A DNA stretch of 64,000 nucleotides from an uncultured Desulfuromonas sp. (GCA_963666745.1 OY762961.1:2227274-2291273), one strand, 5' to 3'. Positions 5,291-21,537 are shown, numbered from the stretch's first letter. Notes: generated by a model not told the origin, from the sequence alone. Translations and numbers: made by a program.

Positions 5291-5367
5291 TGGAGCGGGA
5301 AACGGGGCTCGAACCCGCGACCCTCAGCTTGGAAGGCTGATGCTCTAGCCAACTGAGCTACTCCCGC
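5291..5367 (-). tRNA. tRNA-Gly (TCC)
   Basis: GCGGGAGTAGCTCAGTTGGCTAGAGCATCAGCCTTCCAAGCTGA...TTCGAGCCCCGTTTCCCGCTCCA. Confidence 0.97.
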
Positions 5368-5470
5368 CCAAAATCGGACTTTACAACCTAAGGACTCCGC
5401 CGTCCCACCCGCGCAGTACATTCGCTAGGCTCCTGCAACACGTGACACGCTTTCGTCCGATATGAAATTG

Positions 5471-5555
<85 letters not shown>

Positions 5556-5593
5556 AAGGGACGTTCTGAAAGGCTTGCGCCCATTCTATTTAA

Positions 5594-5669
5594 TGGAGCT
5601 GGCGATAGGAATTGAACCCACAACATCCTCATTACAAGTGAGGTGCTCTACCTATTGAGCTACGCCAGC
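5594..5669 (-). tRNA. tRNA-Thr (TGT)
   Basis: GCTGGCGTAGCTCAATAGGTAGAGCACCTCACTTGTAATGAGG...CGCCAGCTCCA. Confidence 0.97.
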
Positions 5670-5681
5670 ACAGAGTCGCAA

Positions 5682-5710
5682 TCTATACACCAACGACTCT
5701 TTTTTTGCAA
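5682..5710 (-). promoter_or_regulatory. Putative sigma70 promoter of the tRNA-tuf operon
   Basis: Minus strand TTGCAA-17 nt-TATAGA, just upstream of tRNA-Thr(TGT). Confidence 0.65.
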
Positions 5711-5797
5711 ATACTTTTTCGCGGTTTTTCCTTCCGCGACAAGCGTTGTGATTTATAAATGATTCGCCCGACGCTGTCAACCGCCTTTTACGGTTTT

Positions 5798-6535: not shown

Positions 6536-7248
6536 GCGCCAGCCCCAGTCATTTCCGACACGATGGCTCGGGCGGCAAGAACGGGATCATCCGCCTTGGA
6601 AATTGGTCGGCCAACCACGAGATAATCGGAACCGGCAGCCACGGCCTGCCCCGGTGTCATGATGCGCTGCTGGTCATCACGAGCGGCCGTTGCCGGCCGG
6701 ACTCCGGGAGTCACAACAACAAAATCCCGGCCACACGCCTCGCGAATCAATGGCAGCTCCTGCGCTGAAGCAACCACGCCATTCAGGCCACTGGACTGAG
6801 CTAATGCTGCCAAACGCGGAACCATCTCAGTGACTGGGAACTCAATGCCCACCTGGCGCAAGTCCTCTTCAGAGGACGACGTCAGAATCGTAACGGCCAG
6901 CATAATAGGGACAGGAAAGCCCTCTTTCATTGCGGCGTCGCGGACCTCATCAACCATCGTTCGCATCATTGTGCCACCACCCAGGGCATGAACATTAAAC
7001 ATTTGCACGCCCATGCGAGCCGCTTCAACGCTGGCTTTGGCGACGGTATTGGGGATATCGTGATACTTGAGGTCAAGAAAAACACCCCCACCCGCCTGAC
7101 GGATCATATCGACAACCTGCGGCCCACAGCGGGTAAACAGCTGTTTGCCAACTTTGAACATCCCCACTTCATCAGCCAGGAGACGCACCCACTGCTGAGC
7201 CTCGTCATAACTGTCGACGTCCAACGCAAAAATCAACCGCTCTTTCAT
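6532..7248 (-). CDS. pyrF: Orotidine-5'-phosphate decarboxylase
   Basis: FLDLKYHDIPNT, VTPGVRP and VVGRPI motifs. Confidence 0.97.
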   Translation of the reverse strand: MKERLIFALDVDSYDEAQQWVRLLADEVGMFKVGKQLFTRCGPQVVDMIRQAGGGVFLDLKYHDIPNTVAKASVEAARMGVQMFNVHALGGGTMMRTMVDEVRDAAMKEGFPVPIMLAVTILTSSSEEDLRQVGIEFPVTEMVPRLAALAQSSGLNGVVASAQELPLIREACGRDFVVVTPGVRPATAARDDQQRIMTPGQAVAAGSDYLVVGRPISKADDPVLAARAIVSEMTGAGA

Positions 7249-8477
7249 GCATTCTCTCCCTGTTCGACCAATTTACGCGTTCTCGCAACAATCTCCTGGA
7301 CCCGTCGGATAATATCGGCACTGCCTTGCGTCCCCAACACTTGACGCACCAGCATGCACTCGGCATAAACCAGCTCATTAAGGCTATCAACCAGCAACTT
7401 TTTCTGGTCCCCCTCTTCCAGCCCGGTGAGGTTTTTGATGAGAAGACCACCATCCAGAGTCCCGTCGGAATTCAAGCGAATACCGCGAAAGACATAGTTC
7501 ATGGGATGCGGCGCTTCGCGCATGAATCGGTTGGCATCTTCAATCAGTCCACTCCCTTTGGATTCAACACATTCATATAAAAGACTCAGCACACCATTGA
7601 ACACACCAAAGAGAGAAGAGAAGGCTTCTCCCACCGGTTCGGATTTGGGCTCATTGACTTTGAGAAAGCGCTTTTCCACCAACTGATGCAGGACACGCAA
7701 CGCGTCATATTCCGGCAGACCGCTCTTTGCCATAAGCTGGCCGACCTGACCGGGCGAAGAATAGGTTAGCTCGACCACTTTTTTTTCTTCCGCAACCAAT
7801 TCGGCCGGATCACGCCCAGTATATTCGAGCATGGAATCCAGCGAACGCAGACGTCGCAGATAAAGAGCCTTTTCATCAATACGTCGCAAGCCTTCCATGA
7901 TGAGATTCTGGGTACTCATCGACAACTTGACAATATCGTCCCGTTTTAGCTCACCTGCGGCAAAGTAGCAGCTTCCCTCCTCACAAGCGAACAGGTTATA
8001 GACAATAGTCTCCACCTGCTGGCGGGTTGCCAACCATAGATCACGGGCCGCCACCAGGTTTTTTTTCACAAGAAGCTTGCTCAATGTCTCCCCGGAACCG
8101 AGCTCAGTACGCACCTGACTGAGTTGACGTCGTTCAAGCTTGCCGATTTCGCACAAGACCTCACCCAGATCTTCTTCCACACGCTGGCTGGTGGCAAAGA
8201 TAATCTCGCCATCCTGAAAAAAGACCTGACGGTTTCCGTCAGGAATATCCAGATACAAGATACCGGTTTGACGAAACATGTTAAAAAAGGACAACACATC
8301 AGCAATGCCTACCGCCCCCAGCACTGCCGACATACAGGGAATCCGTTCGCCCTCAACGGCCAGCAGAACATGCTGTGGCGAGGAGGACGCGATCAGCAGC
8401 TCACTGCCCTGAAGCGTCGCCAGAACCCGGCGTGGCAGATTTACACGGCCACTGTCATCCACGGTTGCACGATACAC
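7245..8477 (-). CDS. DUF4388/PATAN-like domain protein
   Basis: Central region (DILSFFNMFRQTGIL...FFQDGEIIFATS...LGEVL...GSCYF...STQNLIMEGLRRIDE) resembles DUF4388; stop overlaps the pyrF start. Confidence 0.7.
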   Translation of the reverse strand: MYRATVDDSGRVNLPRRVLATLQGSELLIASSSPQHVLLAVEGERIPCMSAVLGAVGIADVLSFFNMFRQTGILYLDIPDGNRQVFFQDGEIIFATSQRVEEDLGEVLCEIGKLERRQLSQVRTELGSGETLSKLLVKKNLVAARDLWLATRQQVETIVYNLFACEEGSCYFAAGELKRDDIVKLSMSTQNLIMEGLRRIDEKALYLRRLRSLDSMLEYTGRDPAELVAEEKKVVELTYSSPGQVGQLMAKSGLPEYDALRVLHQLVEKRFLKVNEPKSEPVGEAFSSLFGVFNGVLSLLYECVESKGSGLIEDANRFMREAPHPMNYVFRGIRLNSDGTLDGGLLIKNLTGLEEGDQKKLLVDSLNELVYAECMLVRQVLGTQGSADIIRRVQEIVARTRKLVEQGENA

Positions 8478-8480
8478 ACG

Positions 8481-10196
8481 CTACTCCATCATCTGGCGGC
8501 CGACTTCATCAACAAGCCAGGACACTGTTTGCTCCACCGGCATCATCATACGATCACCGCCTGCTCTAAGCTGGACTTCAAAGGCGCCTTCCTGGAGAGC
8601 CCGGTTGCCCACGGTCACACGAATGGGAATGCCGATCAACTCGGCATCTTTAAACTTGCTGCCAGGACGCTCGTCGCGATCATCCAGCAGCACCTCAACC
8701 CCTTTTTCCATCAGCTGTTCGTAAAGCTCCGTTCCAGACTGCATAACCTGGGTGTCTTTAGGATTCAGCAGAGTAATGATCACCTGAAACGGCGCAATCG
8801 GCATGGGGAAGACAACACCATTGTCATCATGATTTTGCTCAATGGCCGCCGCGACCGTCCGACCAATACCGATGCCGTAACAGCCCATCACGAGCGGCAC
8901 ATCCTTGCCTTCAGCATTGAGGACCGTCGCACCGAGAGCTTCTGAATACTTGGTCCCCAGCTTGAACACATGACCAACTTCAATACCACGCCACATCTGC
9001 AGGGTCCCTGCGCAGCGGGGACAACCATCACCCGCCTGAGCCTGACGCAAGTCAGCATAGGCTTCCACGCTAAAATCGCGGCCAGGATTTGCCCCCATAT
9101 AATGGGTATCTTTCTCATTGCCACCAATCACGGCATCGACCATGGATGCGACTTCAAGATCGGCAAGAATGCGGCAACGCAACCCAACCGGACCAGCAAA
9201 ACCCACCGGCGCGCCGCTGAGTTCTTCGACGGCGGCATCGCCAAGCATGACGACTTCCAGACAGTCGAGATAGCGACACAGCTTAATCTCGTTGAGTTCC
9301 CGGTCACCACGCAGCAGCACAGCCAGTTGCTCACCGCTATCGGTCTGCAACAGCAAGGTCTTGATCAGACGGCTCTCTGGCATATCGAGAAACTCTGCCA
9401 CTTCGGCAATGGTTTTGCGCTCCGGTGTATCAATTTTTTGCAGCTCGGCCTGGCCCTCACCACTTGAACTTTGCGCCTGGCGCATCTGGGCCTTTTCGAC
9501 ATTGGCCGCATAATCACACTGATCACAGGAAACGATGGCATCCTCACCCGACTCGGCCAACACCATAAACTCATGCGAAGAGGAGCCACCAATGTTACCG
9601 GTGTCCGCTTCCACGGCCCGGAACTTAAGACCGCAGCGTTTAAAAATGCGCTGATAGGCCTGATACATCTTTTCGTAGGCGGTGTCAGCCCCCTCGTTTT
9701 CGAGGTCGAAGGAGTAGGCGTCCTTCATGATAAATTCGCGACCACGCATCAGACCGAAACGGGGCCGGATCTCATCACGAAATTTGCCCTGAATCTGATA
9801 GAGGTTAAGAGGCAGCTGACGATAAGAGCGTACCGTGCCGCGTACCACGTCGGTAATCACCTCTTCATGGGTAGGTCCGAGACAGAATTCCGTTTCCTTA
9901 CGGTCCTTAATGCGCAACAACTCTTTACCGTATTGCTCCCAGCGTCCGGACTCTTCCCACAATCCAGCCGGGACGACCATCGGCATCAGCAACTCCATGG
10001 CGCCGGCACGATCCATCTCTTCCCGGACAATCTGCTCCACCTTGCGGATAGAGCGCAGCCCCAGCGGCAGATAGGTATAAATGCCAGCAGCAACTTTGCG
10101 GATCATTCCGGAACGCATCATCAGCTGATGGCTGACAATTTCGGCATCCGCCGGATTTTCTTTCAACGTGGGCAGCAAGTACTCGGTTAAGCGCAT
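8481..10196 (-). CDS. proS: Proline--tRNA ligase
   Basis: LGPTHEE, KFRDEIRPRFGLMRGREF, GIEVGHVFKLG, MGCYGIG. Confidence 0.99.
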   Translation of the reverse strand: MRLTEYLLPTLKENPADAEIVSHQLMMRSGMIRKVAAGIYTYLPLGLRSIRKVEQIVREEMDRAGAMELLMPMVVPAGLWEESGRWEQYGKELLRIKDRKETEFCLGPTHEEVITDVVRGTVRSYRQLPLNLYQIQGKFRDEIRPRFGLMRGREFIMKDAYSFDLENEGADTAYEKMYQAYQRIFKRCGLKFRAVEADTGNIGGSSSHEFMVLAESGEDAIVSCDQCDYAANVEKAQMRQAQSSSGEGQAELQKIDTPERKTIAEVAEFLDMPESRLIKTLLLQTDSGEQLAVLLRGDRELNEIKLCRYLDCLEVVMLGDAAVEELSGAPVGFAGPVGLRCRILADLEVASMVDAVIGGNEKDTHYMGANPGRDFSVEAYADLRQAQAGDGCPRCAGTLQMWRGIEVGHVFKLGTKYSEALGATVLNAEGKDVPLVMGCYGIGIGRTVAAAIEQNHDDNGVVFPMPIAPFQVIITLLNPKDTQVMQSGTELYEQLMEKGVEVLLDDRDERPGSKFKDAELIGIPIRVTVGNRALQEGAFEVQLRAGGDRMMMPVEQTVSWLVDEVGRQMME

Positions 10197-10448
10197 GATT
10201 CCGTTCCTTTATGGCAATAAAATGTGTTCATGTTATCATCGTGTAAATACGTTCGCACGCTAGCTTATTTCGGGGTAAAATGCAAGCAATGCCAAGGGGC
10301 TGAAAGGATTCTAACCAGGACACCCCGTCCCTGCTCAGACCAACCCTCGGCTCGCATTTACGCTACGAAGCAATCCAGATTATTCGGAGCGTTTTCAGAT
10401 GGCCCCCAATGGACGCAACCCCTTTCCTTCCCTGAAGCATGAGGTTTT

Positions 10449-11939
10449 ATGAAAGAGACATTAACCACAGCCACCTTTGCGCAGCATGTTGCTGCCGGCA
10501 CGCCCCTTGTTGCCATCAACACCGGCAATGAACAACGGACCATTCAATTGATCCAGACAGCCGCCAGTCGCAATCTCAAAGGGATGGAAGCCGCAAAAGT
10601 CTGGTCGTGCATCCATGGCTTTGAGGGCATTGACAACACCCTGGACCCGGTAGACGCCTTGAACTGGGCCCTCAACCAGCCGGGCAATGCCATTTTCATT
10701 TTTGTGGATATGCACTGGTTCTGGGAGAACAACCCAAAAATCCACCGCATTCTGATCAACTTTTCCCAGCAACGCAGCAATGCCCACAAAACCTTGGTTT
10801 TTCCGGCCTTCGACGCCAGAATCCCTGAACCGCTGCAAAGCCACTTTGTCCAGCTCGACCACCCCCTGCCCAACGCAGCGGAACTATCTGCCTACCTGAC
10901 GGGCAACCGAGAACAAGACCCATTCCTCAACCAGCTTCTTGAGCAGGAAGACACGCTGAGAAAAATGGTGCTCGCCGCGCAAGGCCTTGACCTGATCCGT
11001 CTTGAACGAGCTTTGCGCATGGCGCGTCTGACCAAGAGCTCTGATGTTCAGGAAGTGATCGGCGCACTGCATCTCGATAAGAAGCGGGCCCTGGAGCAAA
11101 GCGGCATTCTGGAATTCGTCGATAACGACTTGAAACCTGAACACGTCGGCGGCATGGAAAACCTCAAGCATTGGATGGCGCGCCGAGAAAAAGCCTTCGG
11201 CATTGAAGAACTCAGTGGTGGTGAAAATCTGCCCAGTGGCGTGTTGCTGATGGGTATCAGTGGTTGTGGTAAAAGCCTGTTTGTCAAAGCCATTGCCGCC
11301 CGTTGGAGCCTGCCCCTGTTGCGCCTCGACATGTCGACGGTTTATGAGGGAACCTATGGCACCCCGGAACGCAGCCTGCACCGCGCCTGCCAACTGGCCG
11401 AAGCCATCTCACCATGTGTTTTGTGGATTGACGAGATTGAATCCGGCATCTCCGAGCAGGGGTTCAAAAGCGGCGGTGGTTCATCATCGCGCGTGCTCGG
11501 TTACTTCCTGACTTGGATGCAGGAGAAAAAAAATCCGGTGTTTGTGGCGGCGACAGCCAACGCCATTGAGATGCTGCCTGCCGAGGTGCTACGCAAAGGG
11601 CGTTTTGACGAAATTTTTTACATTGCGTTGCCGGGACTCAACGAGCGCAAAGAGATCTTTGCCATCCACCTTGACCGCCAAGGTCAAGACAGCACCGCGT
11701 TTGACACGACAACACTGGCCCATTCCAGCAAAGGATTTTCCGGGGCAGAGATCGAACAAGCCGTGGCCAGCGCGCGTTTCGAAGCTCTGGCAGCCCAACG
11801 CCCAATGACGGAAAAAGACATTATGGAAGCGATCAGTCAGACCGTGCCGATTTCCGTGACTATGGCCGAACAAATCAAAAAAATCGAAGCCTGGGCCTTC
11901 AAACGCGCGGTTCCGGCCAGCGACCTCAGCGAACGTTAA
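10449..11939 (+). CDS. AAA+ ATPase, Ycf46-like
   Basis: Walker A GISGCGKS, Walker [33 protein letters not shown]; degenerate N-terminal domain. Confidence 0.85.
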
Positions 11940-11951
11940 AAGAAACCTTCA

Positions 11952-13028
11952 TCAGTCTTTATCGAGGCGCTCGGCCAAAGCCAGCGCCTCGTCAACCAGG
12001 GCATCAGCCAATTCTGACTGCGGTAAACGACGGACAATCTCGCCTTTACGAAACAGCAAGCCCATTTCCTTGCCACCGGCGATCCCGAGATCTGCCTCAC
12101 GCGCCTCCCCTGGCCCGTTGACCACGCAGCCCATGACAGCAATCGTCAAGGGTGCGGTCAGGTGCTGCAACCGCGACTCCACCTCTTCGGCAACAGAGAT
12201 CAAATCAATCTGACAACGACCACAGGTGGGACAGCTGACAAAGACAGGCCCGCGTTGGCGCAACTGTAACGATTTGAGAATCTCCCAACCAACACGCACC
12301 TCTTCGACCGGATCACCGGTCAACGACACACGCAACGTGTCGCCAATGCCGTCATAAAGCAACACGCCCAAACCAACCGCACTTTTGATGGTTCCAGCCC
12401 ATGTGGTTCCGGCCTCGGTAATGCCGATATGCAGTGGATAATCCACCTTGTCCGCCAGCAATCGATACGCCTCGACAGTGCGTTGCACGTCCGACGCCTT
12501 GAGGCTGACCTTGATCTGATCATAACCAAGGTCCTCAACGATACGAATATGTCCAAGAGCGCTTTCGACCATGGCCTCAGCCGTGGCATGGCCATAACGC
12601 TCGAGCAATTCTTTTTCCAGTGAGCCACCGTTGACGCCGATACGGATCGGCAAATTACGCTCGGCACAGGCTTTGACCACCTCAGCCACTTTCCAGGCTT
12701 CACCAATATTACCGGGATTAATCCTCAAGCCAGCAACACCGCTGTCGATGGCCTGCAACGCCAATCGGTAATCAAAATGGATATCGGCAATCAGCGGAAT
12801 CGAGCAGCCATCAACAATCTCCCGCAGCGCCTGGGCCGCCTCCATGTCCGGCACAGCACAACGTACGATCTCACAACCGACACTCTCCAAAGCACGAATC
12901 TGGGTCAATGTCGCCTGAGCGTTGCGTGTATCGGTATTACACATGGATTGAACGGAAACCGGAGCGCCACCACCCACCGGCACGGATCCAACCGTTAAAG
13001 AACGCGTTGCGCGTTGTCTTATGGTCAC
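11952..13028 (-). CDS. ispG: (E)-4-hydroxy-3-methylbut-2-enyl-diphosphate synthase
   Basis: ADIHFDY, RINPGNIG, SCPTCGR, AVMGCVVNGPGEA; GTG start at 13028 after a GGAGG-like SD. Confidence 0.98.
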   Translation of the reverse strand: MTIRQRATRSLTVGSVPVGGGAPVSVQSMCNTDTRNAQATLTQIRALESVGCEIVRCAVPDMEAAQALREIVDGCSIPLIADIHFDYRLALQAIDSGVAGLRINPGNIGEAWKVAEVVKACAERNLPIRIGVNGGSLEKELLERYGHATAEAMVESALGHIRIVEDLGYDQIKVSLKASDVQRTVEAYRLLADKVDYPLHIGITEAGTTWAGTIKSAVGLGVLLYDGIGDTLRVSLTGDPVEEVRVGWEILKSLQLRQRGPVFVSCPTCGRCQIDLISVAEEVESRLQHLTAPLTIAVMGCVVNGPGEAREADLGIAGGKEMGLLFRKGEIVRRLPQSELADALVDEALALAERLDKD

Positions 13029-13193
13029 TGCTTCCTCCCTATGGATTGAAACCTCATGCATCTAGCCACAGCCATCCCCCGGCGTCAAGGGACAAAGATA
13101 GCATTGACACACTCTGCACAAGCGGCTACTGTCGCCACAATTAGCCTTGTCATAAAGCCCTCAATTATGGGCCATTTTCATCATGGACACGTT

Positions 13194-14582
13194 ATGAAAA
13201 AAAACTCCCGCAGTGCGGCAAAACGTCCGGCACCACGTCAGGAACCCGTTACCGTCACGATTGACCACTTGAATGTCGACGGCATCGGCGTTGGCCGCCA
13301 TGAGAACAAAGAAGTTCTCGTCGCCGGAACATTGCCCGAAGAAGAGGTCCTTGTGGCCATCGAACATGAAGGGCAACGTCGTGCCATTGGTCGACTGATT
13401 AAAGTTCTACGCAAAAGTCGTAAACGGATCACACCAAGCTGTAAGCTGGCGAAACAGTGCTCCGGCTGCCCGCTGATTCATCTCGGCTATTCGGATCAGC
13501 TTGACTTTAAAAGAGGCATGATTGAGGACGCCCTGAGTCATTATCAAACGCTTGAAGGCGTTACGGTTCATCCGGTCTGGAACTCAGAAAAGACCTTCGG
13601 TTATCGCACCATTGCCAAGCTGGCCATCGCCAAAGTGCACGGCAAAGCGCTGGTTGGTCTATATAAACGCGGTTCCCATCAGGTTTTGGACATCGCCAAC
13701 TGTCCCCAGCAGCACCCGTTGATCAACCAGATTGCCCAGGCCCTGCGCGAAGAGATCGAGAAACAGGATATTTACGTCTACAATCCGGTTTCACGTCGCG
13801 GCCTGCTGCGCTATGTGGCGATCCGCGTCAGCCCCCAAGCTGAAAAAGCTCTGGTGACGTTGGTCACCACTGAACGCAACTATCGCGAGATCACACACCT
13901 GGCCAAGTGGCTAAAGAAAAAAATTCCACAGATCATTGGCGTTCATCAAAACATCAACGCCTCCAGCGGCAATGTTATTTTCGGTCAAACCACGGTAAAA
14001 GTGATCGGCGCGGATGACCTGATTGACCAGGTCGGCGATATTCGCCTCCGGCTGTCCCCAACCTCTTTTTTCCAGGTCAATCACCACCAGGCTGCACGCA
14101 TCTATGGCCTGGTGCAACGCTGGGCCAACCTCAGTGCAGGAGAGCTCGCCGTTGACCTTTATTGCGGCGTTGGCGGGATCGCCATGCATCTGGCAACCAG
14201 TGGTGCCCAGATCACCGGCATTGAAATCAACGAAGAAGCCATCTTCAATGCCAAAGCCGCAGCCGTACTCAATGGTCTGTCCAATTGCCGGTTTATGGCG
14301 GGTGACGCCGGTGAAATCCTTCACGACCTGCAACAGGACCTCAGATCGCTCAAGGTCGCGGTAGTCAATCCGCCACGTGGCGGCTGCAGCGAAGAGATCA
14401 TTGCCACATTAGGCCAGCTGCGCCCCCGGACATTGATCTACGTCTCGTGCAATCCATACAGTCTTGGCCGGGACCTACATCTGTTGACACAGCAGGGCTT
14501 TAAGGTGAAAGAGCTACAACCAGTCGATATGTTTCCGCAGACAGCGCATATTGAATCGGTTGTCCGCCTTAGTGCTGAATAG
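13194..14582 (+). CDS. rlmD: 23S rRNA (uracil-C5)-methyltransferase RlmD/TrmA family
   Basis: TRAM domain, [4Fe-4S] motif CKLAKQCSGC, SFFQVN, DLYCGVG, NPPRGG, YVSCNP, DMFPQTAHIE. Start uncertain. Confidence 0.9.
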   Translation: MKKNSRSAAKRPAPRQEPVTVTIDHLNVDGIGVGRHENKEVLVAGTLPEEEVLVAIEHEGQRRAIGRLIKVLRKSRKRITPSCKLAKQCSGCPLIHLGYSDQLDFKRGMIEDALSHYQTLEGVTVHPVWNSEKTFGYRTIAKLAIAKVHGKALVGLYKRGSHQVLDIANCPQQHPLINQIAQALREEIEKQDIYVYNPVSRRGLLRYVAIRVSPQAEKALVTLVTTERNYREITHLAKWLKKKIPQIIGVHQNINASSGNVIFGQTTVKVIGADDLIDQVGDIRLRLSPTSFFQVNHHQAARIYGLVQRWANLSAGELAVDLYCGVGGIAMHLATSGAQITGIEINEEAIFNAKAAAVLNGLSNCRFMAGDAGEILHDLQQDLRSLKVAVVNPPRGGCSEEIIATLGQLRPRTLIYVSCNPYSLGRDLHLLTQQGFKVKELQPVDMFPQTAHIESVVRLSAE

Positions 14583-14673
14583 TCATAAAAAGACGTTCGA
14601 CGGCTCTTGCCAGAGACGGGCATTTGCATTAGGATAAGGTCTTCATAATCGTCCCACATAACAGGTATAGACA

Positions 14674-15276
14674 ATGAAAATTCTTGACTGCCGAGAGCTA
14701 CAATGCCCCAGACCCGTTCTGGAAACGCGCAAACAGATCCTGGCACATCCTGACGAACCCGTGCAGGTGCGTGTCGGCAATGATATTGCGCAAGCCAATG
14801 TGACTCGCCTGGCCACCAAGGAAGGCTTTTCAGTGACCGCAACCCACAAAGGCGATGAAATTGTCCTCGACCTGACCCCGACAGGTAAAGAGCGAGACAC
14901 CGCTCAAACCACCGTCACGGCCAAGGCGGAAAAGGTTGCCGGTGACACCGTTATTTATATTTCCAGCTCAAGTATGGGACGGGGAAGCGATGACCTCGGC
15001 GAGGTTCTGATGCGCAATTTCATCTGCACGTTGCTTGAGGCCAGTGAACTCCCTGCGACGATGCTATTCGTCAACAGCGGGGTAAAACTGACCTGTGAGG
15101 GTTCTGCGGTTCTTGAACCCCTGCAGCACCTTGTTGAAGCCGGTGTAACCATCAATGTCTGTGGTTTGTGCCTGGAGTTTTACGAGCTGAAAGATCAGAT
15201 CAAGGTTGGACAGGTTTCCAACATGCTCGACACAGTCGAAGCCATGCAACAGGCGGCCCACATCATTCAGCCATAG
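14674..15276 (+). CDS. yedF: Selenium-metabolism sulfurtransferase-like protein (SirA/TusA + DsrE-like domains)
   Basis: N-terminal DCRELQCPRPVL (TusA CPxP motif); C-terminal SSMGRGSDDLG..LM..F..TL...FVNSGVKL...CGLCLEFY; adjacent to tRNA-Sec. Confidence 0.88.
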   Translation: MKILDCRELQCPRPVLETRKQILAHPDEPVQVRVGNDIAQANVTRLATKEGFSVTATHKGDEIVLDLTPTGKERDTAQTTVTAKAEKVAGDTVIYISSSSMGRGSDDLGEVLMRNFICTLLEASELPATMLFVNSGVKLTCEGSAVLEPLQHLVEAGVTINVCGLCLEFYELKDQIKVGQVSNMLDTVEAMQQAAHIIQP

Positions 15277-15294
15277 GCCCTGCAGATAAAAAAC

Positions 15295-15323
15295 TTGAAT
15301 CAAATTCGCCTAGCTGATATACA
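15295..15323 (+). promoter_or_regulatory. Putative sigma70 promoter of selC
   Basis: TTGAAT-17 nt-TATACA with TGn extension, 15 bp before the tRNA. Confidence 0.55.
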
Positions 15324-15338
15324 TCATCCCTCATATGG

Positions 15339-15434
15339 GGGAGTAGCTAGTAGCCTGGTGGCGCTCACGGCCTTCAAAGCCGATGGAGGGCGTATCCCGT
15401 CCTCGGTGGGTTCGATTCCCATCTGCTCCCGCCA
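15339..15434 (+). tRNA. selC: tRNA-Sec (anticodon TCA)
   Basis: 8-bp acceptor stem GGGAGTAG/CTGCTCCC, anticodon loop CTTCAAA, long variable arm, GGTTCGATTCC T-arm, G-CCA end; 96 nt. Confidence 0.96.
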
Positions 15435-15436
15435 AA
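15417..15436 (+). repeat. attL core (TCCCATCTGCTCCCGCCAAA)
   Basis: 3' end of selC; exact copy at 21518-21537. Confidence 0.93.
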
Positions 15437-15496
15437 ATCAAGTAACGGCCTAAAATCATAAGCAATCCATATTGCCTTCGGAAGTTCACAGTGCGT

Positions 15497-15520
15497 CTGT
15501 AGACCAAACTGTGGTACATT
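15497..15520 (+). repeat. Left putative integrase arm-type site
   Basis: CTGTAGACCAAACTGTGGTACATT; 22/24 identical to 21423-21446. Confidence 0.65.
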
Positions 15521-15534
15521 CTGGAGGCTTTTTT

Positions 15535-17280
15535 GTGCGTAATCCTCTCTATCTTACTCAACGCGGACGTACATTCTATTACAACCGACGGCTTCCTCGT
15601 CGTTATCACGGTAGCGGCCCAAAACGTTTGTGCGTATCGTTAAGGACAAGAAGCCGTCGCGAGGCAAAGCATCGGTTAAAACTGATCGACACGCAGGTCG
15701 AGCGACTTATTACACTCGGGAATCTCCACATGCTTACTGAAAAAGAACTATCACTCCTTCTCGACGTCATCAAACACAACACCCTGAAAGCAACGTGGGA
15801 CTGTAAAGAGTCTACAGGTAAAAGCTTGCTGGGTATCGACGAAGAACTGACGTCTTACGACTTTGGAAGCCTGTCGCGCAATCCAGAGCTACAAGCGCTT
15901 TGCAGTGTAGGACAGGCCCTCAAGACTCATCACGACAAACCGTCCAGCAATACGATAAAGGAGCTGACCGGTGAAATTGAGGCTCTTATTCAGGTCAAGA
16001 GAGAGCAGCTCACTCTGAACAGATATCCATTGTATTCGGAGTTTGGCCTACCGGATGAGGTTATAGATAGAGCATCAGAACTTGGGCTGTCGGATCAGCT
16101 GGAAGATACAGAGGCAAAGCAACAAGTCAGGAGAGCGCTAACGAGGCAGGATATCGATATTCTTGAGATAGAACTCGAACGAATCAGAACCGGTGATTCA
16201 TCTTATGATCGTGAAAGACGCTCACGCCCACAGAGTAACGCTCCACTGTTCTCGGCGGCTTCAAAAATCTACCTTCAAAGCAAGGAACAAAGCAAGTCAG
16301 CTAAAACCGTCGATAAAATTCGCCTGAACCAGAAACGGTTTCAGGAACTACTACCGGACCTTCCAGTCGATCAATACACGTACGAACAACTTCTGTCATT
16401 CCCAGACCAGCTCAAGCAACAGTTACCGCAGTGTGGCGACAAAACTCGCTTTGACATCCTGATTGCGTTGAGCTCATTTTTCAACTTCTGCGTTGAGCGG
16501 ACATGGCTAGCTCAAAGCCCGTGTCCTAAATGGGCGGAGCCAAACGAATACAGCGCAACGGCCAGAGTTCGTAAAGGTGCTAAGCCCGTACCATGGTCAA
16601 ACGCCGAGCTTGAGCGGCTATTCAAAACCAGTTACTGGACGAAGCCACAAGTACGATACAAAAAACCGCAAAACTTCTGGCTCGCTATTCTTGCTCTATA
16701 CACAGGGGCTCGAGGCAATGAGCTGGCACAGCTTTATATTGAAGATGTCTGCTATGACCAAAAAGGAGACTGCTGGTATCTCGACATTAATGGCCGCGCA
16801 CCGGATAAAAGCACAAAGAACAAGCCATCCATCCGACGAGTCCCACTTCACCCCATACTGATTAAGCTTGGTTTCTTGGCATACGTTGAATGGTTGAAAG
16901 CATCAAACTACACTCACGTCTTTCCAACACTGAAATGGGACCCGAAAACAGGAAGGTATGGTGGATTCTCAAGTTCGTGGCAACACCACACAAGCCGCAA
17001 CGTTGAATGGGACGATTCCAGCAAGCCAAAGGTCTTCCATGGACTGCGTAAAACCTTCGCGGCCAACCTTTTAGAGCATGAGGTACACCGCGAATGGATC
17101 GCCGAGATATTAGGCCACGCCGCTGAATTTAAGCAGACTATGGACTATACAGGAATCCACCCGAATCTAATCAAATACGTGGGCAAGGTGGAATACCCTT
17201 TTGATGTGGTTACGATGGTTGGGAAGTGGCAGACACCAGTAACCTCGGCAAACTTGATGCTATGTTCCCCCCATGAGTAA
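15535..17280 (+). CDS. Tyrosine recombinase/integrase with a DUF6538-like N-terminus
   Basis: GTG start after GGAGG; N-terminal YLTQRGRTFYYNRRLP; catalytic motifs LYTGARGNEL (R), KNKPSIRRVPLHP (K), FHGLRKTF (HxxR), ILGH, MDY (Y). Confidence 0.93.
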   Translation: MRNPLYLTQRGRTFYYNRRLPRRYHGSGPKRLCVSLRTRSRREAKHRLKLIDTQVERLITLGNLHMLTEKELSLLLDVIKHNTLKATWDCKESTGKSLLGIDEELTSYDFGSLSRNPELQALCSVGQALKTHHDKPSSNTIKELTGEIEALIQVKREQLTLNRYPLYSEFGLPDEVIDRASELGLSDQLEDTEAKQQVRRALTRQDIDILEIELERIRTGDSSYDRERRSRPQSNAPLFSAASKIYLQSKEQSKSAKTVDKIRLNQKRFQELLPDLPVDQYTYEQLLSFPDQLKQQLPQCGDKTRFDILIALSSFFNFCVERTWLAQSPCPKWAEPNEYSATARVRKGAKPVPWSNAELERLFKTSYWTKPQVRYKKPQNFWLAILALYTGARGNELAQLYIEDVCYDQKGDCWYLDINGRAPDKSTKNKPSIRRVPLHPILIKLGFLAYVEWLKASNYTHVFPTLKWDPKTGRYGGFSSSWQHHTSRNVEWDDSSKPKVFHGLRKTFAANLLEHEVHREWIAEILGHAAEFKQTMDYTGIHPNLIKYVGKVEYPFDVVTMVGKWQTPVTSANLMLCSPHE

Positions 17281-17378
17281 GTCCAAAATACATATGCTAC
17301 ATAGTCGATTAACTTTATTTTTCGCGTGGATGAAACAGGATGAAAGTGAAAAGCTTCAGGATTCTGAGAATCCCGCCC

Positions 17379-17414
17379 CCACCTCGACCCTTAATGGGTT
17401 AAGGGTCGAGGTGG
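17379..17414. repeat. Perfect 16-bp inverted repeat (hairpin 1)
   Basis: CCACCTCGACCCTTAA-tggg-TTAAGGGTCGAGGTGG, between the convergent integrase and lipoprotein genes. Confidence 0.9.
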
Positions 17415-17433
17415 AACACGATCTATGCAATGG

Positions 17434-17928
17434 TCAGTCTCTTATTTTTGCAGCCACACTATCAAGAATCTTCGCTTCCAGTGTCCCTTTCGAATAAGTC
17501 TGAACCCAGCTTCTCTGGAACGGAAAAGCCATAGAGCCATTTCCTGTGCGAAGCAACATCCGAAAATTACTATTAACCTGCACTTGAGTTTTTTCTTCAC
17601 TTACTGAAGTTGCCAATATATTAAAATTTGCAATTCGCTGCTCTACAAGGTCGGGTGTTCCGAGAACACTTCCCCTTGTCCCTTCGTAAGCCCAAATTGG
17701 GTCGTACCCGATATTTGACATCGCAATTAAGCCACTATCTTTTGCAAGAGTAGTTATCCCAATATTTGTTTCGGCAATGCTAGCAATGATAGCAGCCCAG
17801 ACCTCATCATAGGGAGCAGAAAATTCCCTCACCTTATCAACTGAAACTTGCTGAGGTAAAACCCCCTGTGTCGCACAGCCAGATAACATTAAAGCAACGC
17901 ACAGGAACACTAACCGAAAAGAGCGCAT
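17434..17928 (-). CDS. Hypothetical lipoprotein (island cargo 1)
   Basis: GGAGG SD; signal peptide MRSFRLVFLCVALMLSG-C (lipobox LSGC); APYDEVWAAII...KDSGLI loosely resembles BamC-type domains. Confidence 0.8.
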   Translation of the reverse strand: MRSFRLVFLCVALMLSGCATQGVLPQQVSVDKVREFSAPYDEVWAAIIASIAETNIGITTLAKDSGLIAMSNIGYDPIWAYEGTRGSVLGTPDLVEQRIANFNILATSVSEEKTQVQVNSNFRMLLRTGNGSMAFPFQRSWVQTYSKGTLEAKILDSVAAKIRD

Positions 17929-18170
17929 TAAAAACCTCCGTCTTAACAAACCTTTTAAAATTACATGAATACGAGAGAGTTATGCTAACCATATCCCCAT
18001 CAAGCTTCAAGTTAGTTTAATAAGCTCCTACATTAAAATAAATACAAATCTGAGGCACAAGATACATAGATCATTCGTTTTCTTTCATCGTAGAGACAGG
18101 TAAGGAAAATCGGGAGAAGGAGCAAGAATCACAATTCCCCGCCCCCCCACCAAAGCGCCTCTCTCCAGCG

Positions 18171-18728
18171 TTAGTCCGCTAGGACATTGTAGATCGTCGC
18201 ACGGCTCACGCTGTAGTCCCGTGCAAGCTGTGACGGTGTAGCACCTGCAAGTTTCGCTGTTTTAATCTCTTTCCTTTGTGTAGCGGTCAGTTTCGGAGCT
18301 CGTCCGAGGTGCTTACCTCTTGCCTTTGCAGCTGCAATACCTGCAAGTTGCCGTTCCTTTCTGAGGTTCGTCTCAAACTCAGCGAAGACACCCAACATTT
18401 GCAGGAAGGCCTTACCTGTTGCTGTGCTTGTGTCTATTCGCTGATCCAAGATTTCCAACGATGCGCCCCTGCTCTCCAGATTGGCCACAACAGTTGAAAG
18501 GTCGTGCATATTCCTTGCAAGCCGATCCAGCTTCCACACAACGAGCTTGTCACCTTGCCCCACCATATCAAGCAACAGTGCTAAAACATCTCGGCCTTTT
18601 GTGGTTGTCCCCGATCCGGTTTCAGATCGATGCACAGCGTCAGGATATGCGGCTTTAAGAGCATCCTCCTGCATAGAAGTGTCTTGATCTAAAGTTGATA
18701 CCCTGCTGTAACAGAAAATCGTAGCCAT
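18171..18728 (-). CDS. Serine recombinase (resolvase/invertase family)
   Basis: CYSRVST catalytic Ser motif, LVVWKLDRLARN, FAEFE..LRKERQLAGIAAAK..G...GR, C-terminal HTH VSRATIY. Confidence 0.95.
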   Translation of the reverse strand: MATIFCYSRVSTLDQDTSMQEDALKAAYPDAVHRSETGSGTTTKGRDVLALLLDMVGQGDKLVVWKLDRLARNMHDLSTVVANLESRGASLEILDQRIDTSTATGKAFLQMLGVFAEFETNLRKERQLAGIAAAKARGKHLGRAPKLTATQRKEIKTAKLAGATPSQLARDYSVSRATIYNVLAD

Positions 18729-18752
18729 GATGCCTCCCGTGCAAAGCGATAT

Positions 18753-18859
18753 TGTACAGAAACATCTTAGAGCTTTATAGATAAAGTGTCAACAATTAAA
18801 AAAATAGACCTTTATGACATGTGAAACTGACAGTGTTAAAAAGGTATACCTTTGCGACA
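18753..18859. promoter_or_regulatory. Putative res site upstream of the resolvase
   Basis: Site-I-like TGTTAAAAAGG-TATA-CCTTTGCGACA (18834-18859) and site-II-like TGTCA...TGACA (18787-18819), with a third AT-rich subsite nearer the gene. Confidence 0.65.
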
Positions 18860-18973
18860 TGATAAAATTCCTCCCCCTCCCTGCACAGTTGTGAATATCG
18901 TCATTGACCAAAAACCAAACCTAGACTAATATCTTGCAATTATTTAATGCATTCCAATTACGGAGGAGGAACA

Positions 18974-19717
18974 GTGGAATACAAAAACCCTAAGAACGAC
19001 GTATGCTCATTCAGAGGAACGCTACTTGCGGCAATATGTTTAGTAGTATTTTTTTGTTTAACAGGCTGTGGTGTTCAACCTGGGAAATACGCGTATCCCG
19101 TCAACAACAATGACTTGTACAGTTGCAGCATGGAACAGCGCAGTTGCAAAACGGTAGCCGTAGCTCCTTTCGAAGATGTACGCGGAACTACAAATCATTT
19201 TGGGACCTATTTCCTCTATTGGATTCCTCTATCTCCCGGAGGATATATAGAATATGAACGCCCAGACACTGCGAGAACATTCGGCCTCCACTTTACACCT
19301 ACTGATGACTTAGCGAAATCTGCCGTATACAGCCTTCAAAAATCCAACCTCTTCGAGGAAGCATTCTTATCCTTTAGAGGAGATAAAAGCCAAGCAGACT
19401 ACCTACTTGAAGGCGAAATCATTTCTACAAGATTCCAATCTAACCAATGGTCGTATGGACTGTCTGTATACGGTCCAACCTTATGGCTGATAGGACTTCC
19501 TGCAGGGAGTACCGAGAACGACCTTGCACTTTCTTTAACGCTTACGGATTTAAAGACGGGGGAACTCCTCTGGCAAAATCAATATGAGATGAACAATAAA
19601 GTGATACAAGGTTTGTACTACAATCTGACCGACGGAGGACTGGAGACCTACGCCCGACTTATGCAAGACATCATGAATCAGGCAGTCTTTGATATGAGTA
19701 CCAAACTATCACTCTAA
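18974..19717 (+). CDS. Hypothetical lipoprotein (island cargo 2), YajG/CsgG/GNA1162-like alpha-beta fold
   Basis: GGAGGAGG SD before GTG; lipobox LTGC; VAVAPFEDVR, ADYLLEGEI and TGELLW motifs. Confidence 0.75.
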   Translation: MEYKNPKNDVCSFRGTLLAAICLVVFFCLTGCGVQPGKYAYPVNNNDLYSCSMEQRSCKTVAVAPFEDVRGTTNHFGTYFLYWIPLSPGGYIEYERPDTARTFGLHFTPTDDLAKSAVYSLQKSNLFEEAFLSFRGDKSQADYLLEGEIISTRFQSNQWSYGLSVYGPTLWLIGLPAGSTENDLALSLTLTDLKTGELLWQNQYEMNNKVIQGLYYNLTDGGLETYARLMQDIMNQAVFDMSTKLSL

Positions 19718-19753
19718 TGCTATTGCGCTGAATATTTTCGCACCATACAATTA

Positions 19754-19818
19754 GTCACTACTTAAACAAAACGACCCTTCGGTGGCATATCAAAGGGTCG
19801 TTTTGTTTAAGTAGTGAC
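19754..19818. repeat. Perfect 26-bp inverted repeat (hairpin 2)
   Basis: GTCACTACTTAAACAAAACGACCCTT-13 nt loop-AAGGGTCGTTTTGTTTAAGTAGTGAC, between convergent lipoprotein 2 and rep. Confidence 0.92.
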
Positions 19819-19871
19819 ATCGCAGATGTGTCATTTTAATGATACATTACTACTACTACCAGCTACACTCG

Positions 19872-20801
19872 TTATCCCTTGCTGGGCAACAGATACGAAA
19901 CATCGTTGACGATCCAGTCAAAAACCCACTGCATTCGCTCTACGTAGACGGTAAGTAAATTTCGCAGGAAAGCATTTTTAAAGTCATCTTCATAGCCTTC
20001 ACGAAGCCCCCTGTGTGTAATCCCACGATGGGACCCTGCCCCGCTAAGGGCATGGGTCTGAGCACGGCGGCTCATCTCAGGATCAGCACAGCAAGTCATC
20101 TCAAATGCAAGTTTAGAGGCAGCATCGTTTAAAAAGAACTTTGCAATTGGTGGAAGAAGCGGCAAGGCCTTCACATTGAAGCGACCCCATGCCGCACCGG
20201 GCGGCCAGTCCTGATGTTCTTCGTAACCACGTTTGCCAAGATAGCTGCACAGCTTGACTGCAGGGTTCCCATAGAGTGACTGAATACAGACAGCACGGTT
20301 CCTCGACTCCTTGCTGTTCAGTTCCGCAATTCGATGCCACGTGGTCAAAAACCACTTAGTGAGATCCTCACGGCTCTGCGGTTCGGGAAACAGCAAAACA
20401 ACATGGAGGTGCGGCGTCCCATCCGTTGAGGCCAACTCAAGCTTCCAGAGCCCTGAGCACACTGGAAAGGCACGCCTCATGGCGAGCTTAAGGTTTCGTA
20501 TTTGTTTCCGAACTGTCTCATGATCAGGACGACATAATCGGTTGCAATTCAGGGTTGCCATGAAACCACGAGAGTATCGAGCATCACCTTTACCAGGGGC
20601 CGTATATTCTGGCCAGTTAATCCGCAAGAACAGTTCCTGCATGTTCGCACGAGCAGTCTTACCAAGGCCTTTAATTGGATGGCATCCTTCGGCAAAACCT
20701 TCCCCTGTGATATTGCGATTTTCGCGTTCTCCGCCTCGGACTGATTTAGTCAGCCCATTCTTTTGCAAGGTCACGAGGATACTCTCAGAGGGTTCATTCA
20801 T
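19872..20801 (-). CDS. HUH-superfamily rolling-circle replication initiator-like protein
   Basis: Motif 1 FMATLN, motif 2 WKLELASTDGTPHLHVVLL, motif 3 SYLGK followed by WGRFN; AAGGAGG SD overlapping the upstream ORF. Confidence 0.78.
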   Translation of the reverse strand: MNEPSESILVTLQKNGLTKSVRGGERENRNITGEGFAEGCHPIKGLGKTARANMQELFLRINWPEYTAPGKGDARYSRGFMATLNCNRLCRPDHETVRKQIRNLKLAMRRAFPVCSGLWKLELASTDGTPHLHVVLLFPEPQSREDLTKWFLTTWHRIAELNSKESRNRAVCIQSLYGNPAVKLCSYLGKRGYEEHQDWPPGAAWGRFNVKALPLLPPIAKFFLNDAASKLAFEMTCCADPEMSRRAQTHALSGAGSHRGITHRGLREGYEDDFKNAFLRNLLTVYVERMQWVFDWIVNDVSYLLPSKG

Positions 20802-20804
20802 GAA

Positions 20805-21080
20805 TTACGCCTCCTTGCGCCGCTGCCGAATTAAAGCTAAAGCTTGAGTAAACTTCACAGCATCAAGTTCGTCATCCGTAAGCAAATGATGATAACGTCC
20901 GAGAAGCAAAAGCTTTTGTGCAACATTCACACTAATACCAGCCATACCAAGCAGGCTCTCCCAGCTGGGCTGAGCTGGCTCTTCAGAAAGCTTTTTCAGT
21001 TTGCTGACAAGCTCTGCAGCTTCGAGGTAGTCACGCGCTGTTACTGTAGGCAAAGGGATGTAAATGGAAGATTCTGACAT
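20805..21080 (-). CDS. Small hypothetical protein, possibly a DUF3102-like DNA-binding protein
   Basis: 91 aa, 3 bp upstream of rep; AELVSKLKK...SWESLL..AGISVNVAQKLLLLG pattern. Confidence 0.55.
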   Translation of the reverse strand: MSESSIYIPLPTVTARDYLEAAELVSKLKKLSEEPAQPSWESLLGMAGISVNVAQKLLLLGRYHHLLTDDELDAVKFTQALALIRQRRKEA

Positions 21081-21384
21081 TGGGTAAATCCTTTCGTCTG
21101 TTAAAAGTCAAAATGGGCGCAATTGCCCTACCCCGTTATGTGATTCGGCAGGGCATTTACTATTAACGACCCGAAAGAATTTTTCAGAGAGACGATAAAA
21201 GGAAGGATGGATGTATTGCTGTTAAAAAAAAATGGAGAGGATGTGGCCATAACGCCCGTTTTAACCGCTAATGGCAACCACGTATTACACTTACGTAAGT
21301 TACCATTTTAGTCATAATTAAACCCCAGTGGTCTCCTATCAACTACGAAAACCAGCTTTACAATTAGCGCAACAAAGGCAAAAA

Positions 21385-21424
21385 AGCCCAATTGGATTCC
21401 TGCTTTCAGGAATCTAATTGGGCT
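21385..21424 (-). terminator. Rho-independent terminator-like hairpin inside the island right end
   Basis: 18-bp stem with one wobble pair, AGCCCAATTGGATTCCTG-cttt-CAGGAATCTAATTGGGCT; T-tract follows on the minus strand. Confidence 0.6.
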
Positions 21425-21446
21425 GCAGACCAAAGTGTGGTACATT
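21423..21446 (+). repeat. Right putative integrase arm-type site
   Basis: CTGCAGACCAAAGTGTGGTACATT; 22/24 identical to 15497-15520. Confidence 0.65.
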
Positions 21447-21517
21447 TTTATCGGAAATTTCGTTAGATGCAGAAAAGAACTTCTTTGATTTCAGATAGTT
21501 ATATTTTGGCTTGCTCG

Positions 21518-21537
21518 TCCCATCTGCTCCCGCCAAA
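21518..21537 (+). repeat. attR core (displaced 3' fragment of selC)
   Basis: TCCCATCTGCTCCCGCCAAA, identical to 15417-15436. Confidence 0.93.

Follow-up and report, generated by a model that had tools for sequence, protein, structure and literature searches.

Actinomycete integrative and conjugative elements (AICEs) of the pSAM2 type, found in Actinobacteria, are about 11 kb long. A tyrosine integrase inserts them into the 3' end of a tRNA gene, and after excision they replicate as rolling circles by means of their own HUH-type initiator. They also have an FtsK-like Tra protein for the transfer of double-stranded DNA, xis and spread genes. RS1 of Vibrio cholerae is an integrated inovirus satellite with its own Rep. 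TLC-phi of V. cholerae is another such satellite, also with its own Rep (PMC9226527). In streptococci, 118 of 144 integrative and mobilizable elements (IMEs) encode putative relaxases of the rolling-circle replication (RCR) initiator type (Rep_trans, Rep_2, PHA00330, Viral_Rep). Many of them have a tyrosine integrase acting at a tRNA gene, and RCR-type proteins can serve both transfer and maintenance (PMC5704250). Among the Vibrionaceae, PICMIs, or phage-inducible chromosomal minimalist islands, are about 6 kb long, with three core proteins, rolling-circle concatemers and defence genes (PMC10803314). In tycheposons, by definition, an integrase and a replication module occupy opposite ends, with cargo between them. 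An optional small serine recombinase is among their hallmark genes, and their cargo serves adaptation or phage interference (bioRxiv 10.1101/2020.12.28.424599). Much of the mobile DNA of bacteria that is still unexplained consists of small islands without transfer genes ('hitchers', PMC11389934). We have analyzed a 6.1-kb island in the tRNA-Sec gene (selC) of an uncultured Desulfuromonas sp. (GCA_963666745.1, OY762961.1:2227274-2291273). The whole stretch of 64,000 nt is called here the window. It belongs to a complete genome of 3.83 Mb in a single contig (G000), which has been compared with same-genus or sister genomes (G002, G009 and G010) and with more distant ones.

This mobile island is real and intact. 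It is probably an intact site-specific integrative episome replicating by rolling circle, built on a small plasmid backbone, with a resolvase and a slot into which cargo may be swapped. Its family, of integrating elements akin to rolling-circle plasmids, is small and apparently undescribed. It is no leftover of a larger prophage or of an integrative and conjugative element (ICE), since every relative found is small and has no structural or transfer genes. With its defined ends, its cargo slot and a backbone of four conserved genes, it provides a clean minimal case which lends itself to comparison.

The island in the tRNA-Sec gene

The ends and genes of the island are the following, in window coordinates:

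15339-15434, plus strand: tRNA-Sec gene (selC), the integration target (ARAGORN; Rfam RF01852, 69.9 bits, gathering score 47)
15417-15436: attL core, exact 20-bp direct repeat TCCCATCTGCTCCCGCCAAA
15472-17280, plus strand: tyrosine integrase, 602 amino acids as listed, N-terminal DUF6538 (PF00589, E 9.8e-10; PF20172, i.e. DUF6538, E 1.8e-7; phrog_1, E 5.6e-32)
17434-17949, minus strand: cargo lipoprotein, 171 amino acids, lipobox LSGC (from the reading frame and its sequence)
18171-18728, minus strand: small serine recombinase of the resolvase/invertase type, 185 amino acids, C-terminal helix-turn-helix (PF00239, E 8e-38; HTH_7, E 8.6e-4; phrog_125, E 2.1e-58)
18947-19717, plus strand: cargo lipoprotein, 256 amino acids, lipobox LTGC (weak LpoB and FlgT_M Pfam matches)
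19872-20801, minus strand: HUH rolling-circle Rep, 309 amino acids, no helicase domain (motif I FMATLN at 80-85; H131-L-H133; Y187 in YLGK)
20805-21080, minus strand: orf91, 91 amino acids, small conserved open reading frame (ORF) in an operon with rep, ending 3 nt upstream of the rep start codon
21518-21537: attR core, exact 20-bp copy of TCCCATCTGCTCCCGCCAAA
21546-21580, plus strand: host tRNA-Sec terminator, a 16-pair hairpin with a T-run, pushed 6.1 kb away by the insertion

The left repeat restores the tRNA-Sec 3' end: The core consists of the final 18 nt of the tRNA and of two further bases. The two copies are 6,101 bp apart, and the repeat lengthens to 29 nt at 90% identity. By a rough estimate, about 3e-5 chance repeats of a 20-mer are expected within 8 kb. 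The GC fraction is 0.41-0.49 within the insert and 0.52-0.56 in the flanks. In G009 and G010, whose selC has no island, a hairpin immediately follows tRNA-Sec, so it is fair to read the hairpin beyond attR as the displaced host terminator. An Rfam scan of the island gives tRNA-Sec alone, beyond hairpin noise. Scans with Pfam, PHROG and NCBIfam have not detected any capsid, Zot or type IV secretion system (T4SS) gene in the 6.1-kb insert. The island is present once in its genome, where Rep, orf91 and the lipoproteins have no paralogues.

Much of this had been anticipated in an earlier note on the same stretch. It had described a discrete integrative element with exact 20-bp attL and attR at selC, the host terminator being displaced to the right end. 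Both copies of the repeat, and the hairpin with its T-run, are indeed found. The integrase, which the note took to be intact-looking, has its PF00589 domain and catalytic motifs; it, the two lipoproteins, the resolvase and Rep are all where the note had placed them, and capsid and transfer genes are absent, as it had said. The note's list of five genes is correct but overlooks a conserved sixth gene, orf91.

The integrase matches PF00589 above the Pfam cut-off. Its motifs ARGNE, HGLRKT and LGH can be read in the sequence, together with the C-terminal Tyr. What is expected of a tyrosine integrase is found here: a catalytic domain, an att-core repeat at each end and relatives whose site is empty.

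Two of the 13 genomes of the genus carry the island. The selC locus of G010 matches the tRNA side of attL in G002 up to the core, and then the attR flank of G002 for more than 150 bp, with one copy of the core. This is a precise empty site. G009 has no island, though its downstream genes are common to G000, and the downstream flanks of the G000 and G002 islands differ. Two tRNA-Sec genes are present in G010, on contigs C36 and C42, 98% and 93% identical to that of the window; the locus on C36 corresponds to the insertion site of G002 without the island. In G009, tRNA-Sec is separated from the CxxCxxCC gene which abuts the island in G000 by small, unrelated genes over about 1.9 kb (5832-7719), so the region downstream of selC is variable even without the island.

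Backbone genes show low ratios of nonsynonymous to synonymous substitutions (dN/dS) between G000 and G002 (int 0.098, resolvase 0.073, rep 0.120, orf91 0.113). With values of 0.07-0.12, these four genes are under purifying selection. Both att cores, and a pair of subterminal repeats described below, are intact in the two genomes. The synonymous divergence (dS) of the island genes is 0.42-1.05, compared with 1.84 in the adjacent host gene; as this is a single host gene near saturation, the gap is only a hint of a later or independent acquisition. The host gene in question lies directly upstream of tRNA-Sec (14674-15276) and codes for a YedF-like fusion of TusA and DsrE. Proteins of this sort have a link with the trafficking of selenium and sulfur, which places selC in a selenium-related neighbourhood.

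Relatives of the island and their cargo

We have searched 301 genomes of the class in six frames with a profile of the Rep family, which is present in 20 of them. In five of these 20 genomes a resolvase is found within the same element. The relatives we have detected are 6-16 kb long and have no structural or transfer genes, and the integrated ones are bounded by tRNA repeats. The earlier note would have considered the island a decayed remnant if its homologues were always embedded in larger prophages or ICEs; all of them are small and free-standing.

The closest relative is the G002 island, also at tRNA-Sec and with the same att core, which is 15,653 bp long. Its Rep and integrase are 87% and 82% identical to those of the window at the amino acid level, orf91 is 92% identical, the resolvase is kept, and the non-coding right arm is shared. 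Between rep and the resolvase gene it has an IS4-like transposase, Cas9 (1,037 amino acids), Cas1, Cas2, a 30-repeat array and a protein of 483 amino acids to which no function can be given (orf483), while a YbjQ-domain gene lies between the resolvase and int. The island covers 1633-17314 of the stretch G002:C1:1526000-1545500; its type II locus is complete, with a 36 nt repeat and a period of 66 nt. The combination of int, Rep and resolvase at selC, which the earlier note suggested looking for, is thus present in G002, and similar islands are found at tRNA-Met and tRNA-Thr in two other Desulfuromonadales genomes.

The island at tRNA-Met is found in G131, a metagenome-assembled genome (MAG) of the Geopsychrobacteraceae. 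It has an exact 29-nt repeat and a length of 6,876 bp, and contains a DUF6538-type integrase, a resolvase, a RelA_SpoT protein, Rep (30% identity to the Rep of the window, E 5e-21) and, upstream of its gene, a small ORF. The RelA_SpoT protein matches the PADLOC candidate system PDC-S33 (E 5.6e-113). The integrase is split by an IS3-family transposase (12906-15875 of the G131 stretch examined), so this copy is probably immobilized.

The island at tRNA-Thr (G133) has a 57-nt repeat and a length of 9,255 bp. Its integrase is of a different type (366 amino acids); a resolvase, Cas12b (C2c1), a 9-repeat array, Rep and a small ORF are also present. Cas12b is read as two ORFs of 301 and 788 amino acids (5423-8734, with the array at 9064-9682 of G133:C1:4428501-4448500), so it is either frameshifted or misassembled. 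Cas1 and Cas2 are absent among the listed ORFs of at least 100 amino acids, a limit below which an ORF the size of Cas2 could fall.

A further relative is contig C74 of G144, of 6,032 bp, whose first and last 67 nt are identical, which implies a circle of 5,965 bp. Its resolvase shares 65% identity with the resolvase of the integrated G131 island. The circle also contains a helix-turn-helix protein, a small ORF, a Rep of the PF23343 family and two ORFs of no known function, and has no integrase. Its Rep is similar to that of the window in the HUH core only (30% identity, E 9e-7). This contig is probably a small rolling-circle plasmid. The distant Reps of G067 and G140 lie next to tRNA-Pro amid short ORFs; neither an integrase nor a resolvase is found near them.

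The backbone (int, resolvase, rep, orf91) is conserved, while the genes flanking the resolvase, on either side, are variable cargo. The cargo of the three integrated relatives is CRISPR-Cas9, CRISPR-Cas12b or PDC-S33, that is, defence or candidate defence each time: The slot holds a complete type II CRISPR-Cas, a type V-B locus with a split Cas12b, or a candidate defence gene. If the element is active, it illustrates how self-replicating integrative elements of 6-16 kb can carry compact CRISPR-Cas systems in environmental Desulfuromonadales.

In the window, the cargo consists of two lipoproteins. The one of 171 amino acids has only three homologues among 5.8 billion proteins, and no family in Pfam, PHROG, PADLOC or NCBIfam. 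The one of 256 amino acids has 15 homologues, with 35-58% identity, one of which is found among insertion sequences (IS) in Desulfuromonas thiophila. PHROGs and NCBIfam give nothing for either protein. The model of the longer one has a mean predicted local distance difference test score (pLDDT) of 74.9. Its predicted fold resembles outer-membrane lipoproteins of the FlgT/CsgG/PelC/LptE/DUF330 kind, with Foldseek E-values from 1.6e-7 to 1e-4 (FlgT ring 1.6e-7, DUF330 2.6e-7, CsgG 2.6e-6, PelC 1e-5). Judging from their position in the slot, the lipoproteins may provide a surface-related benefit to the host, such as exclusion of phages or of other elements. We flag these two uncharacterized proteins as candidates for envelope-level protection.

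Rep, orf91 and candidate sites

A word-indexed search of the 5.8 billion proteins with Rep finds only Rep itself. An exhaustive HMMER pass over 1.84 billion representatives finds 151 homologues with E <= 1e-3, 12 of them with E <= 1e-10. We have aligned 26 sequences: the Rep of the window, the G002 copy and 24 distant homologues. Residues E122, H131, H133, W155, Y187 and G202 are invariant in all of them, and K190 is nearly so. The motifs of an HUH initiator are all present in the canonical order: I (FMATLN, FxTLT-like), the metal-binding II or HUH (PHLHVVLL) and III or YxxK (SYLGK). PF23343 (REP_ORF2-G2P) is matched at E <= 0.01 by 25 of the 26 proteins (the best at E 9.5e-17), and phrog_3419 (rolling circle DNA replication initiation) by 11 and the Pfam model of RepSA (pSAM2) by seven. 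An AlphaFold model based on this alignment has a pLDDT of 85.3 and a predicted template modelling score (pTM) of 0.81. Nearly all its top fold matches in the PDB are of the Rep/HUH type, with probabilities of 0.9-1.0. They include the DNA-binding domain of papillomavirus E1, circovirus and geminivirus Rep, the parvovirus NS1 nuclease, pMV158 RepB and IS200-type TnpA.

From these motifs and the modelled fold, we accept Rep as a helicase-less HUH initiator with a single predicted catalytic tyrosine, a member of a sparsely sampled clade. The HUH nature of Rep given in the earlier note is therefore borne out by the invariant motifs, the distant homologues and a confident fold model. In a tblastn search with Rep, no PLSDB plasmid and no INPHARED phage is found. 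A pattern-seeded scan with the single Rep protein finds no relative among genome contigs or IMG/VR; the same scan with a five-sequence alignment finds one record alone, G131.

The small orf91 protein has no family in Pfam, PADLOC, PHROGs or NCBIfam. It is possibly a regulator or an accessory protein of Rep. In G131, G133 and G144 a small ORF holds the same place upstream of rep. We have considered whether these ORFs are homologous to orf91 and rejected it: Identities are 14-25%, they form no family, and position alone is conserved.

Other features of the island are non-coding:

15497-15520: left subterminal 24-nt direct repeat CTGTAGACCAAACTGTGGTACATT, candidate arm-type integrase site (92% identical to the right copy)
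17379-17414: perfect hairpin with a 16-bp stem between the convergent int and lipoprotein genes
18729-18946: divergent promoter region of the resolvase and 256 amino acid lipoprotein genes (several TGTC/GACA half-site-like motifs; promoter-like matches on both strands)
19754-19818: perfect inverted repeat, with arms of 26 bp and a loop of 13 nt, in the gap between the lipoprotein gene and rep, which are convergent (not kept in G002, whose rep is followed by an IS)
19826-19847: ATGTGTCATTTTAATGATACAT, an imperfect 22-bp palindrome close downstream of rep (found once in the window)
21081-21517: non-coding right arm, 437 bp, with conserved blocks (overall identity to G002 72%, some long blocks being invariant)
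21385-21424: hairpin with an 18-bp stem adjoining the right subterminal repeat (stems kept in G002, loop different)
21423-21446: right subterminal 24-nt direct repeat, candidate arm-type integrase site

Arm-type sites usually flank the core on either side. The subterminal repeats would do so in the excised attP, and are likely arm-type sites. The pair (24-26 nt, about 60-70 bp inside each end) has been kept in the G002 island too, with one copy in the same place at each end. The first 50 nt or so of the listed int ORF are almost invariant between G000 and G002. This ORF begins with TTG at 15472, while a GGAGG sequence (15523-15527) precedes an in-frame GTG at 15535 by 7 nt. The true start is probably this GTG, in which case the left repeat would fall in the promoter or att arm, outside the coding sequence. 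The 437-bp right arm is a candidate for the double-strand origin, a promoter region and one arm of attP. As judged from its position, the hairpin at 17379-17414 is probably a bidirectional terminator. The long inverted repeat at 19754-19818 is most simply another one; alternatively, it may be a single-strand origin or a packaging hairpin.

The YSRVST motif of the resolvase carries the catalytic Ser, as expected of a small serine recombinase, and the protein is 41% identical to the resolvase of the G133 island. The region at 18729-18946 is a candidate res or operator region. The ATGTGTCATTTTAATGATACAT palindrome is a candidate recombination site for a serine recombinase, or else a candidate origin; in our reading its half-sites resemble resolvase binding sites. 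In G002 a 32-nt version of it is duplicated directly (3324-3355 and 14393-14424 of G002:C1:1526000-1545500), downstream of rep and of the resolvase. The two copies bracket the block formed by the IS, CRISPR-Cas, orf483 and the resolvase, which suggests capture of cargo by co-integration there. Unlike G002, G000 has no second copy of ATGTGTCATTTTAATGATACAT downstream of its resolvase, where we have looked for one; it has a single copy.

Proposed mechanism, transfer and comparison with described elements

For excision, rolling-circle replication, the roles of resolvase and cargo and the route of transfer, we infer the following scheme. The DUF6538-type integrase would recombine the 20-bp core at the 3' end of tRNA-Sec, with the 24-nt repeats acting as arm-type sites. 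On the resulting circle, the orf91-rep operon would start rolling-circle replication. Rep would nick by Tyr187, at an origin for which the conserved non-coding arm and the palindrome found downstream of rep are the candidates. The small serine recombinase would resolve multimers and may also mediate the exchange of cargo. The genes flanking the resolvase would form a variable cargo slot, occupied here by two envelope lipoproteins with a presumed surface-related benefit. Such an island may be a simple system to study the minimum needs of excision, episomal replication and hitch-hiking. A bolder view is that an undescribed lineage of episomes shuttles compact defence systems, including complete Cas9/Cas12b loci, among the Desulfuromonadales and perhaps more widely. 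Cassettes would be swapped by the serine recombinase at the palindrome, and the lipoproteins would be a new envelope module for phage defence or exclusion. We regard this view as doubtful.

Several points weigh against the integrative rolling-circle episome we propose. We have not recognized an excisionase in the island, nor located an origin or nick site on it. No PHROG or NCBIfam model is matched by Rep alone, which reaches 22.4 bits on PF23343 (E 1.6e-4), under the cut-off of 27.8. The earlier note would have been refuted by a Rep that does not match HUH profiles: The protein by itself stays below the cut-off, but its homologues match the model, so that membership in PF23343 is a case of transitive homology, as 25 of the 26 aligned proteins do match. 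The E-values of the fold matches of Rep are weak, from 1.4e-3 (best) to 5e-2. The resolvases of the relatives belong to two unrelated-looking subfamilies, so the resolvase may be a recurrent passenger and not strictly part of the backbone. The idea of a slot for defence cargo depends on three relatives only. Neither lipoprotein matches any PADLOC defence model, and homologues of the lipoproteins also occur outside such islands. Finally, we have searched G000 for Zot, VirB4, T4SS coupling protein and Terminase_6N and found no helper.

Having no transfer genes, the element must use outside help: a phage particle, a conjugative pore or DNA uptake. We rank tailed-phage hitch-hiking, conjugative mobilization and inovirus packaging about equally, each of them at a low probability. 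The earlier note supposed a helper, a filamentous phage or a conjugative element, and suggested looking for one in the rest of the genome. No such helper is found, as G000 has no true Zot, VirB4 or coupling protein; a marginal Pfam Zot match of 20.6 bits outside the window (G000:C1:3466068-3467132) lies in a PAS-GGDEF protein and is a false positive, to be borne in mind when inoviruses are sought in this genome. VirB4 and VirD4/TraG-type coupling proteins are absent from the four complete host genomes (G000, G002, G131 and G133), and a Terminase_6N-type terminase, the one prophage marker searched, is absent from G000. Inoviruses with Zot are found elsewhere in G002 and G131, while G000 and G133 have no Zot. 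The inovirus-like prophage of G131 (2639-9847 of G131:C1:3296001-3312000) has Zot, a 422 amino acid ORF, small ORFs and two Rep_trans genes. A few kb away, at 12789-13247 of the same stretch, a truncated PF23343 Rep fragment of 152 amino acids lies beside an IS. We have also considered a Rep family common to the islands and the resident inoviruses and rejected it, since the one resident inovirus examined, that of G131, has Rep_trans and the nearby PF23343 match is this fragment.

Four other explanations have to be compared with the proposed episome. The island might be an immobile relic, either a decayed piece of a larger prophage or ICE or an old fixed insertion whose genes no longer cooperate. 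The unrecognized excisionase, the absence of transfer genes, the IS within the G131 integrase and the split Cas12b of G133 agree with this, and an old insertion is conceivable, as the G000 and G002 islands (82-87% amino acid identity) have diverged to a degree comparable with the flanking host gene. Nevertheless, all four backbone genes are under selection, G000 and G002 both retain intact cores and subterminal repeats, with different flanks downstream, and G009 and G010 have an empty site. Synonymous divergence in the island is also below that of the flanking host gene, and no relative is embedded in a larger element, so we consider a relic most improbable. The version preferred in the earlier note is a satellite of an inovirus, in which Rep makes single-stranded circles which a helper would export by means of a packaging hairpin, for example 19754-19818. 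PF23343 is in fact the ORF2/gpII family of single-stranded DNA phages, RS1 and TLC-phi are precedents of integrated elements bearing a Rep, and inoviruses are present in G002 and G131; the small-ORF blocks with distant Reps by tRNA-Pro in G067 and G140 also fit. On the other hand, the long hairpin is not kept in G002, a CRISPR-bearing relative of 15.7 kb is large for inovirus packaging, and neither INPHARED nor IMG/VR has a phage match to Rep. A filamentous-phage satellite is little supported, since the initiator of the G131 inovirus is Rep_trans and not PF23343, and G000 and G133 have no inovirus, though an incoming helper is still conceivable. We consider it very unlikely.

By analogy with the streptococcal elements, in which putative relaxases of the RCR-initiator type are common (PMC5704250), the island might be an IME. 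Rep would double as a non-canonical relaxase, nick an oriT and pass through the T4SS pore of a co-resident conjugative element. The absence of VirB4 and coupling proteins from the four host genomes weighs against mobilization by a resident conjugative element, and the island itself has no coupling protein or relaxosome accessory gene. No PLSDB plasmid matches Rep. PF23343 Reps are not known to act as relaxases. All this makes an IME quite unlikely. A minimalist satellite of a tailed, possibly virulent phage, similar to PICMIs, is unlikely as well. It would be excised upon infection, and rolling-circle concatemers made by Rep would be packaged by the headful in helper capsids, the island itself contributing no capsid or terminase gene. 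PICMIs of about 6 kb with three core proteins do show that an integrase and a replication function suffice (PMC10803314), and size, missing packaging genes and the defence cargo of the relatives agree. Nevertheless, we find no AlpA-type activator, the integration site and the replication protein are different, and nothing ties the island to any phage. Terminase_6N is absent from G000, though a virulent helper would leave no trace in the genome.

An integrative rolling-circle episome is thus the reading we prefer, and it may be compared with the described elements. AICEs are similar in having an integrase and a rolling-circle initiator at a tRNA gene, and the RepSA model matches some of the aligned Reps, as shown above. 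The island differs in having no FtsK/SpoIIIE-like Tra (none among the ORFs of the 6.1 kb), xis or spread, in having a resolvase and a cargo slot, and in its Desulfuromonadales host. Like IMEs, it is compact, with an integration module of its own and a single protein related to rolling-circle initiators (PMC5704250, PMC5357655). However, those elements mostly encode a TcpA coupling protein and live beside T4SS helpers, while the Rep of the island is of the PF23343 type and no coupling protein accompanies it.

The gene map of the island has the layout of the Prochlorococcus tycheposons, with a tRNA target, a partial-tRNA repeat and a tyrosine integrase facing inward. Tycheposons have primase, helicase and polymerase modules instead of an HUH Rep, and their integrases are a lineage of their own. 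PICMIs share the size of about 6 kb and a core reduced to excision and replication, and they too have no capsid or packaging genes. However, they integrate by fis, are switched by AlpA and have a demonstrated helper phage, while the island is at tRNA-Sec and has no AlpA/HTH_17 match among its ORFs. RS1 and TLC-phi are also integrated, retain an HUH Rep and have no morphogenesis genes; they differ in their integration at dif by the host XerCD without an integrase of their own, in their known inovirus helpers and in the absence of a resolvase or cargo slot. The island is not an inovirus prophage either: All its ORFs are accounted for, and neither the island nor G000 has Zot. Small rolling-circle plasmids such as the G144 circle have a Rep of the same superfamily after a small ORF, and a serine resolvase, but no integrase and no att repeats.

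In summary, the island departs from each of the AICEs, IMEs, PICMIs, tycheposons and inoviruses in a defining feature. The earlier note found no name for its five-part architecture. Indeed, it belongs to no named class, but its overall plan is known from AICEs, IMEs and tycheposons. Among the terms used in that note, 'integrated RCR plasmid' fits best, because one relative, in G144, is a free circle of 5.97 kb with a resolvase and a Rep and without an integrase.

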